A stretch of 64,000 nucleotides of DNA from Escherichia coli. GTDB taxonomy: Bacteria > Pseudomonadota > Gammaproteobacteria > Enterobacterales > Enterobacteriaceae. Each line of letters opens with the position of its first letter. Position 1 is the first letter of the stretch. A program made the position numbers and the translations under genes. Location: assembly GCF_024223415.1 (NCBI RefSeq), contig NZ_CP100500.1, one strand, 5' to 3'. The notes below the pieces were generated by a model. That model saw only the letters and a list, made by a program, of their open reading frames with translations, did not search any database and had not been told where the DNA came from. Positions 60,567-61,221 of the stretch are shown here, in pieces.

Positions 60567-61221
60567 TCAGCTGAAATGATGTCCGGCTGCGGTGAAGGTG
60601 TATCCGTTGATGAGAAGCGCCTCATCCACGGCGTCGTCTGAGGTCAGCCAGTCGTACTCGTTTTCCAGTTGACTGTATAACCAGAAGGCCAGGTCCCGCA
60701 GGGCGTCACAGACAACGGTTTCTTCATCGGCTGTCATTGCCTGTCCGGTCGGACTGTTCCGGGTAACAGTGATATCCATGCTGTACGGATGGCAGTAGTG
60801 TCCCCGGTGACTGATTTCAGCCTGTAACTGCCGGAAGTTACGTTTCTGCACCGCCTGCAGGGCATCCGCGATACGATGAAGTTCATGGTCCTGCGGGGCA
60901 TATTCCCGGATTTTCCTGGCTGTTGCCGGCTGCCAGTGCCAGCGTCCTTCAAAACAGGCTCCGTCCCTGGCTGCAGAATCCGCTGAACCAGATGCACGGC
61001 TCTTCCATAAACCTGCCGCTGCTGAGCCGGATAACTCGCTGGCGGAGGACAATCCCGACAATCTCACAGACCGCCCTGAAGTCTTCATACACGTTTTCAT
61101 ACCAGCTGCTGTCAGCATGATGCTGACGGTACCAGTCACGGGCTTTTTCCCGTGCTGTGGCGGAAAGTTCATCCGGCGTATACACGGTGGTGGTGATAAT
61201 TCTGCTCATCCGCATCTCCAC
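60567..61221 (-). pseudogene. Hypothetical gene spanning two frames (probable frameshift) between yeeT-like and cbeA-like genes
   Basis: ORF 60949..61221 (MEMRMSRIITTTVYTPDELSATAREKARDWYRQHH...) and ORF 60567..61172 (...AMTADEETVVCDALRDLAFWLYSQLENEYDWLTSDDAVDEALLINGYTF...) overlap in different frames. Confidence 0.4.

Follow-up and report, generated by a model that had tools for sequence, protein, structure and literature searches.

A gene of the minus strand (61209..60567) lies divided between two overlapping reading frames in the window, by which we mean the whole 64,000-nucleotide stretch of Escherichia coli DNA analyzed here. The ORF list and the translation assign both frames to a single gene. 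We regard it as very probable that the 2-bp deletion which separates the frames is genuine and inherited, and that the split gene is a pseudogene resulting from ordinary decay. The window copy is best read as a pseudogene, and not as a functional member, of a large family of 214-aa proteins that occurs only on mobile elements. The gene has already been named by RefSeq, and the same allele, with a run of three G's (G3) instead of five (G5), is flagged as 'frameshifted' by the NCBI pipeline elsewhere.

The split gene and its lesion

The first-pass annotation had described a gene split over two overlapping frames at 60567-61221, between a yeeT-like and a cbeA-like gene. This description holds, as two ORFs cover the interval exactly and the flanking genes are DUF987 and CbeA genes according to Pfam. 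On the minus strand, ORF 60949..61221 has 90 aa when counted from the GTG at 61221 and 86 aa from the ATG at 61209, while ORF 60567..61172 has 201 aa, of which the 3' fragment in Table 1 is the native part. The ATG at 61209, with GGAG 6 nt upstream, is likely the true start rather than the GTG at 61221, giving a pseudogene of 643 bp. A Pfam scan of the two fragments returned no family match, and NCBIfam and PADLOC models yielded nothing credible for them either.

The pair of ORFs is not a product of chance, because 801 bp around the split gene match E. coli AR_0085 and GF60 at 99.5% identity, where a single-ORF gene is annotated. In both strains it is one 645-bp CDS (WP_099441936.1) located between the DUF987 and YeeU genes. 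When the window was aligned with these two intact genes, the only frame-breaking difference found was the 2-bp deletion in the G5 run. On the minus strand, CAGCCAGGGGGACGG in the intact copies becomes CAGCCAGGGACGG in the window; GGG is left at 60967-60965, and the plus strand reads CCC at 60965-60967. With the GG put back, a single 214-aa ORF is obtained, in which one of the 214 residues differs from WP_099441936.1 (A163E). By homology the repaired ORF is a full-length member of the 214-aa family (PHROG 5162). The proposal of a decayed accessory gene is supported by the outcome of the repair, and the suggested homology search with the merged translation leads to a protein only one residue away.

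The deletion splits the motif FSGFxSQGDGAxFEG after G82, and the stop of the original frame follows four codons on, so that the window copy lacks the uninterrupted ORF of about 210 aa bearing this motif. Table 1 lists the features of the gene and of its surroundings. The neighbouring families were assigned with Pfam, and the starts that differ from those of the longest ORFs were set from the annotation of the closest relatives.

Table 1. Split gene, its parts and the neighbouring genes in the window
Feature	Coordinates	Strand	Basis
Predicted pseudogene of the 214-aa 'antitoxin of toxin-antitoxin stability system'/DUF8835 gene	60567..61209	-	Alignment with the intact AR_0085 CDS (645 bp), 99.7% identical at the nucleotide level outside the 2-bp gap
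5' fragment of 86 codons (MSRIITTT...FCSQGRSLF), read in the original frame, with premature TGA at 60951-60949	60949..61209	-	Translation
Lesion: G3 run in place of G5 of intact homologues, at codons Q81-G82-D83 of the motif SQGDGAxFxG	60965..60967	-	Alignments
3' fragment in the +1 frame, residues D83-S214 (DGACFEGRWHW...AAGHHFS), with native stop at 60567	60567..60964	-	Translation
UUU UGA closing the 5' fragment, in principle a 'shifty stop' at which a +1 slip would rejoin the frames	60949..60954	-	Read directly from the sequence
DUF932-like gene	62595-63413	-	Length (819 bp) and position agree with the gene annotated in the relatives
Antirestriction gene	62020-62493	-	Pfam
RadC gene	61532-62008	-	Pfam
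DUF987 (yeeT-like) gene, upstream neighbour	61226-61447	-	Pfam PF06174, E = 7.7e-37
CbeA/YeeU antitoxin gene, downstream neighbour	60152-60529	-	Pfam PF06154, E = 5.9e-54
CbtA toxin gene, next after the CbeA gene	59728-60105	-	Pfam PF06755, E = 1e-60
DUF5983 gene	59243-59731	-	Pfam

The DUF987 gene is separated from the pseudogene start by a gap of 16 nt, and 37 nt lie between the native stop of the pseudogene and the CbeA/YeeU gene. A promoter and terminator scan of 59000-64000 gave no sigma-70-like site, and its terminator-like matches fall inside genes. Past the DUF4942 gene, where the island ends, there is an intact ParD/ParE-type toxin-antitoxin pair (87 aa and 105 aa, 57422-57999), which is also present in AR_0085 and GF60. 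A perfect 8-bp tandem repeat of TAAGTGAA with 6.2 copies occupies the intergenic positions 62506-62555, just upstream of the antirestriction gene (start 62493, minus strand); GF60 and the draft assembly GCA_900482235.1 have one unit fewer than the window. The copy number of this repeat could change the spacing upstream of the antirestriction gene.

The islands of the two closest genomes carry lesions of their own. The GF60 island has IS100 inserted in cbtA and IS2 nearby (24956-27292 of the GF60 locus), and in the AR_0085 island the DUF5983 gene is frameshifted (7572-8059 of the AR_0085 locus).

Three near-identical islands, those of the window, AR_0085 and GF60, each with a different lesion, show independent piecemeal decay.

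Distribution of the gene and of its run-length alleles

A search of 5,426 complete E. coli genomes found 1,929 with a place that covers 80% or more of the 801-bp query and 1,947 with one that covers 80% or more of an 81-bp core from the gene; the places number about 2,779 in all. The gene stands between the DUF987 and CbeA/YeeU genes of at least one island in about 36% of the complete genomes. The first-pass annotation had stated that canonical clusters go straight from the DUF987 gene to the antitoxin gene; this is true of CP4-44 in K-12, but not of the roughly 36% of genomes just mentioned. Its view of the gene as an unusual extra was not sustained either, with about 1,930-1,950 of the 5,426 genomes having it at the same spot. 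The extra gene is a normal and common component of CP4-like islands, and K-12 is the exception, not the rule. The comparison with other CP4-like islands, also suggested earlier, gave a divided answer: the gene is absent from K-12 CP4-44 and intact in AR_0085 and GF60.

The lengths of the G run were counted in the same 5,426 genomes using queries of 45-48 bp able to seed only on a matching run length. The G3 allele was found at 39 places in 34 genomes, the G4 allele at 3 places in 3 genomes and the G6 allele at 2 places in 2 genomes. Run-length variants therefore amount to at most 44 of the approximately 2,779 homologous places. By these counts the G tract is not hypermutable, and G3 looks like an inherited allele. 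A phase-variable homopolymer tract was ruled out from the same counts (G4 in only 3 and G6 in 2 of 5,426 genomes). Among the homologues, an 87-aa protein (P0158) ending in ...SQGGRSLF represents the G6 (+1) allele, which enters the same wrong frame as G3 and reaches the same premature stop.

Four G3 copies were examined, namely those of TUM1886 and SLK172 and the second copies in AR_0085 and GF60. Their 2-bp deletion is the one found in the window, and the sequence on either side of it is identical to the window over about 90 bp; unlike the window island, their islands adjoin ynjB, cadC or yghD, and the gene as a whole is only about 87% identical to that of the window. All four are annotated as 'frameshifted' (for example AM464_RS30715 in AR_0085, ACHP5I_RS26235 in GF60 and QVM91_RS11670 in TUM1886), and an additional 10-bp deletion is present in three of them. 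In all four islands the DUF5983 gene is truncated and the DUF4942 gene broken, and the CbtA gene is frameshifted in every one except that of TUM1886. The occurrence of the examined G3 copies in related island lineages suggests inheritance. The combination of the window backbone with G3 was found in none of the 5,426 complete genomes.

Genuine mutation or artefact

An exact-sequence look-up found the 86-aa truncated product of the window also in the NCBI draft assembly GCA_900482235.1 (SRA15185.1). The 15-kb contig UDHK01000049.1 of this draft matches the window from 53859 to 64000 at 99.88%, differing by one 8-bp repeat unit and four SNPs at 62661-62685, and the pseudogene is identical. A one-off sequencing error is unlikely, because a non-identical assembly has the same allele.

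The strain might nevertheless truly have G5 and an intact gene, with G3 miscalled in sequencing or assembly or copied from a paralogue during polishing. The lesion does sit in a homopolymer, and a G3 paralogue identical over about 90 bp around the site is present in AR_0085 and GF60, which provides a setting for the mis-mapping of reads in polishing. Against this stand the draft assembly, in which the same allele occurs on the same backbone together with five other differences from the window, and the 39 places at which PGAP-annotated complete genomes have G3. An undercall of two bases in a five-base run is also unusual. Nine further indels distinguish the window from this island in AR_0085 or GF60, and no gene that the window has intact is broken by any of them. 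We consider an artefact to be improbable. The first-pass annotation had raised a sequencing indel that hides a single ORF of a known family; adding GG does restore an ORF of a named family, but the indel is common to the independent draft.

Can the split gene still function?

With the deletion taken as real, the effect on the product depends on where it falls. Among 114 aligned homologues that are 37-61% identical to the query, SQGDGAxFxG is the strongest motif of the family, and Q81, G82, D83, G84, A85, F87 and G89 are each at least 90% conserved. Because the deletion falls inside this most conserved motif, the split gene is most likely non-functional.

One may suppose instead that the gene is split but functional, in that its 86-aa N-terminal piece, or a C-terminal piece with its own initiation, still has a function. 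The 86-aa ORF retains its start and a Shine-Dalgarno-like GGAG, and many assemblies list truncated N-terminal ORFs with lengths of 62-87 aa. However, the AlphaFold model shows a single compact domain whose sheet of residues 53-92 runs past the break, and the conserved motif straddles the same point. No start in frame with the C-terminal part lies near the break; the ATG at 61172 adds 69 out-of-frame residues, and copies of the G3 lineage go on decaying. A split gene that still works thus seems very unlikely.

The other way to rescue the gene is a programmed or leaky +1 ribosomal frameshift at UUU UGA (60954-60949), aided by GGAG as in prfB and yielding a 213-aa fusion. The prfB gene has a CUU UGA site with an upstream Shine-Dalgarno-like element at a spacing of 3 nt. 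The frames of the window do need a +1 shift. The original frame ends with U UUU UGA A, a sequence that allows tRNA-Phe to pair again in the +1 frame, and 4 nt separate the UUU codon from the GGAG before it. Yet this spacing differs from the 3 nt of prfB, and intact genes read the bases of the supposed signal as ordinary codons, TGT TTT GAA. The arrangement is not conserved either: run-length variants are limited to the small number of places given above, the aligned homologues are single ORFs, and the examined G3 copies are annotated as pseudogenes, three of the four with the further 10-bp deletion. In the fusion product GRSLF would replace GDGACF, with the loss of the near-invariant D83, G84 and A85. 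The programmed frameshift put forward in the first-pass annotation accordingly finds no backing in these comparisons, and we give it scarcely any credence. The UUU UGA is a by-product of the deletion and not an evolved signal, although its context could permit low-level +1 read-through. Transcriptional slippage was dismissed, as a G3 run is too short for it.

Origin of the deletion

For the pseudogene that we favour, the course of events may be pictured as follows. A 214-codon accessory gene, common between the DUF987 and cbeA genes of CP4-like islands in E. coli, would have lost two G's from its G5 run. Translation from the ATG at 61209 would then stop after 86 codons, at the TGA of 60951-60949, and the remaining 132 native codons would be left in the +1 frame, where they lack a start.

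Two routes to the deletion can be envisaged. The first would be replication slippage in the G run. In the second, a diverged paralogue in another island, with the identical G3 allele, would have served as donor for short-patch gene conversion. A G3 paralogue is located near cadC in both of the closest genomes, AR_0085 and GF60, while no second copy of the gene that could serve as conversion donor was found within the window. The window is identical to the second copies of AR_0085 and GF60 and to SLK172 over alignment columns 223-313, and to TUM1886 over columns 223-318. This tract of about 90 bp contains no informative site that separates conversion from slippage; column 247 is C in all lineages except the first copy of AR_0085. 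Besides independent slippage, gene conversion is a plausible source of the deletion.

In the comparison with UDHK01000049.1, the four SNPs at 62661-62685 fall within 25 bp at the 3' end of the DUF932 gene and are the only substitutions in 10 kb. This cluster resembles a short patch converted from a paralogous island, and would fit short-patch exchange here.

The intact 214-aa family

The intact homologue matches 2,807 proteins in 90% clusters and 3,451 representatives in 50% clusters, and nearly all of these are about 210 aa long. The homologue also matches phrog_5162 (E = 1.2e-36), and the function of PHROG 5162 is listed as unknown. RefSeq gives the product the names 'antitoxin of toxin-antitoxin stability system', 'DUF8835 domain-containing protein' and 'hypothetical protein'. 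No Pfam (PF06154 included), NCBIfam or PADLOC model matches the intact protein, and the name DUF8835 appears only in RefSeq annotations. Two weak matches were attributed to chance, one to an NCBIfam cyclic-nucleotide phosphodiesterase model (E = 0.064, 12.6 bits against a cutoff of 400) and one to Pfam GumK_N (E = 0.083).

Despite a confident AlphaFold model, no relative of the protein was found among PDB sequences and folds, and the predicted structures of BFVD gave matches only to uncharacterised phage proteins. A full-text literature search returned no paper on the family, with the product name mentioned in passing only and DUF8835 not at all, and a search on the gene neighbourhood returned unrelated genome reports only. 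As to the class implied by the RefSeq name, no homology to a known antitoxin family was detected in Pfam, NCBIfam, PADLOC or the PDB sequences and folds. The name 'antitoxin of toxin-antitoxin stability system' has no backing from the family models, structures or literature searched, and the protein is at most a putative antitoxin, not a demonstrated one.

The surroundings of the gene vary among hosts. In E. coli the order is DUF987 - gene - CbeA - CbtA. In Salmonella enterica it is different, namely DUF987 - CbeA - CbeA - gene - CbtA (three loci, L012/L013/L014, 7293-9081), and the gene has a 4-nt overlap with the CbeA gene upstream. In some E. coli islands adjacent to cadC the gene is fused in frame to cbeA to give 343 aa (P0024 and similar proteins); the fusion is present in at least 7 contigs, including the complete genome CP138416.1 (4001-5032 of loci L022/L023/L024), and hints at a functional link of the 214-aa protein with the antitoxin. 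There are also three contexts where CbtA and CbeA are missing. In Roseibium (Alphaproteobacteria) the gene is found in an ICE-like region with ArdC, DUF2958, RadC, ParB and a large helicase; in a metagenome contig, in an island with integrase, N6 methyltransferase and PD-(D/E)XK/UvrD-type genes; and in a phage-like contig, among many small uncharacterised genes, an integrase and an HTH gene.

Judged by these contexts, there is at best about an even chance that the intact protein is an accessory protein of a mobile-element establishment or anti-defence neighbourhood, and in Enterobacteria it is possibly linked in function to CbeA. A bolder reading makes the family a functional partner of CbtA/CbeA-type modules, or of mobile-element establishment and anti-defence sets in general; its repeated inactivation, with G3 on several island backgrounds, would then reflect selection for its loss after domestication of the island. 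This reading was considered because the fold has no solved relative, the gene stands between antitoxin and toxin genes in Salmonella and it is fused to CbeA in E. coli; we hold it to be unlikely. In a weaker variant, the G3 allele may be partly rescued by +1 slippage at UUU UGA.

There is little at stake in the pseudogene itself, which is routine. The family, on the other hand, is very large and restricted to mobile elements, with a confident fold and no structural relative, and apart from the broken copy it is a reasonable target for functional work.

Comparison with known systems

The closest counterpart of the window is the WP_099441936.1 locus of AR_0085 and GF60, which has the same island backbone and the same order of DUF987, gene, YeeU/CbeA and CbtA. 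The difference lies in the run, an intact G5 there and G3 in the window, where the product is truncated to 86 aa. When compared with yeeS-yeeT-cbeA-cbtA of K-12 CP4-44, the window has the same flanking gene families in the same order, but K-12 has no gene between yeeT and cbeA and only a gap of 72 bp.

The type IV antitoxins of the CbeA/YeeU group (PF06154) adjoin the 214-aa gene in E. coli and are sometimes fused to its product. Nevertheless, PF06154 does not match the 214-aa protein, whose homologues also occur without CbtA/CbeA. Finally, the window resembles the +1 frameshift of prfB (RF2) in the need for a +1 shift, in the U-rich P-site codon followed by UGA and in the GGAG upstream. It departs from prfB in that the site is a non-conserved by-product of a deletion with a 4-nt spacing, and in that the product would be without the conserved residues of the family.
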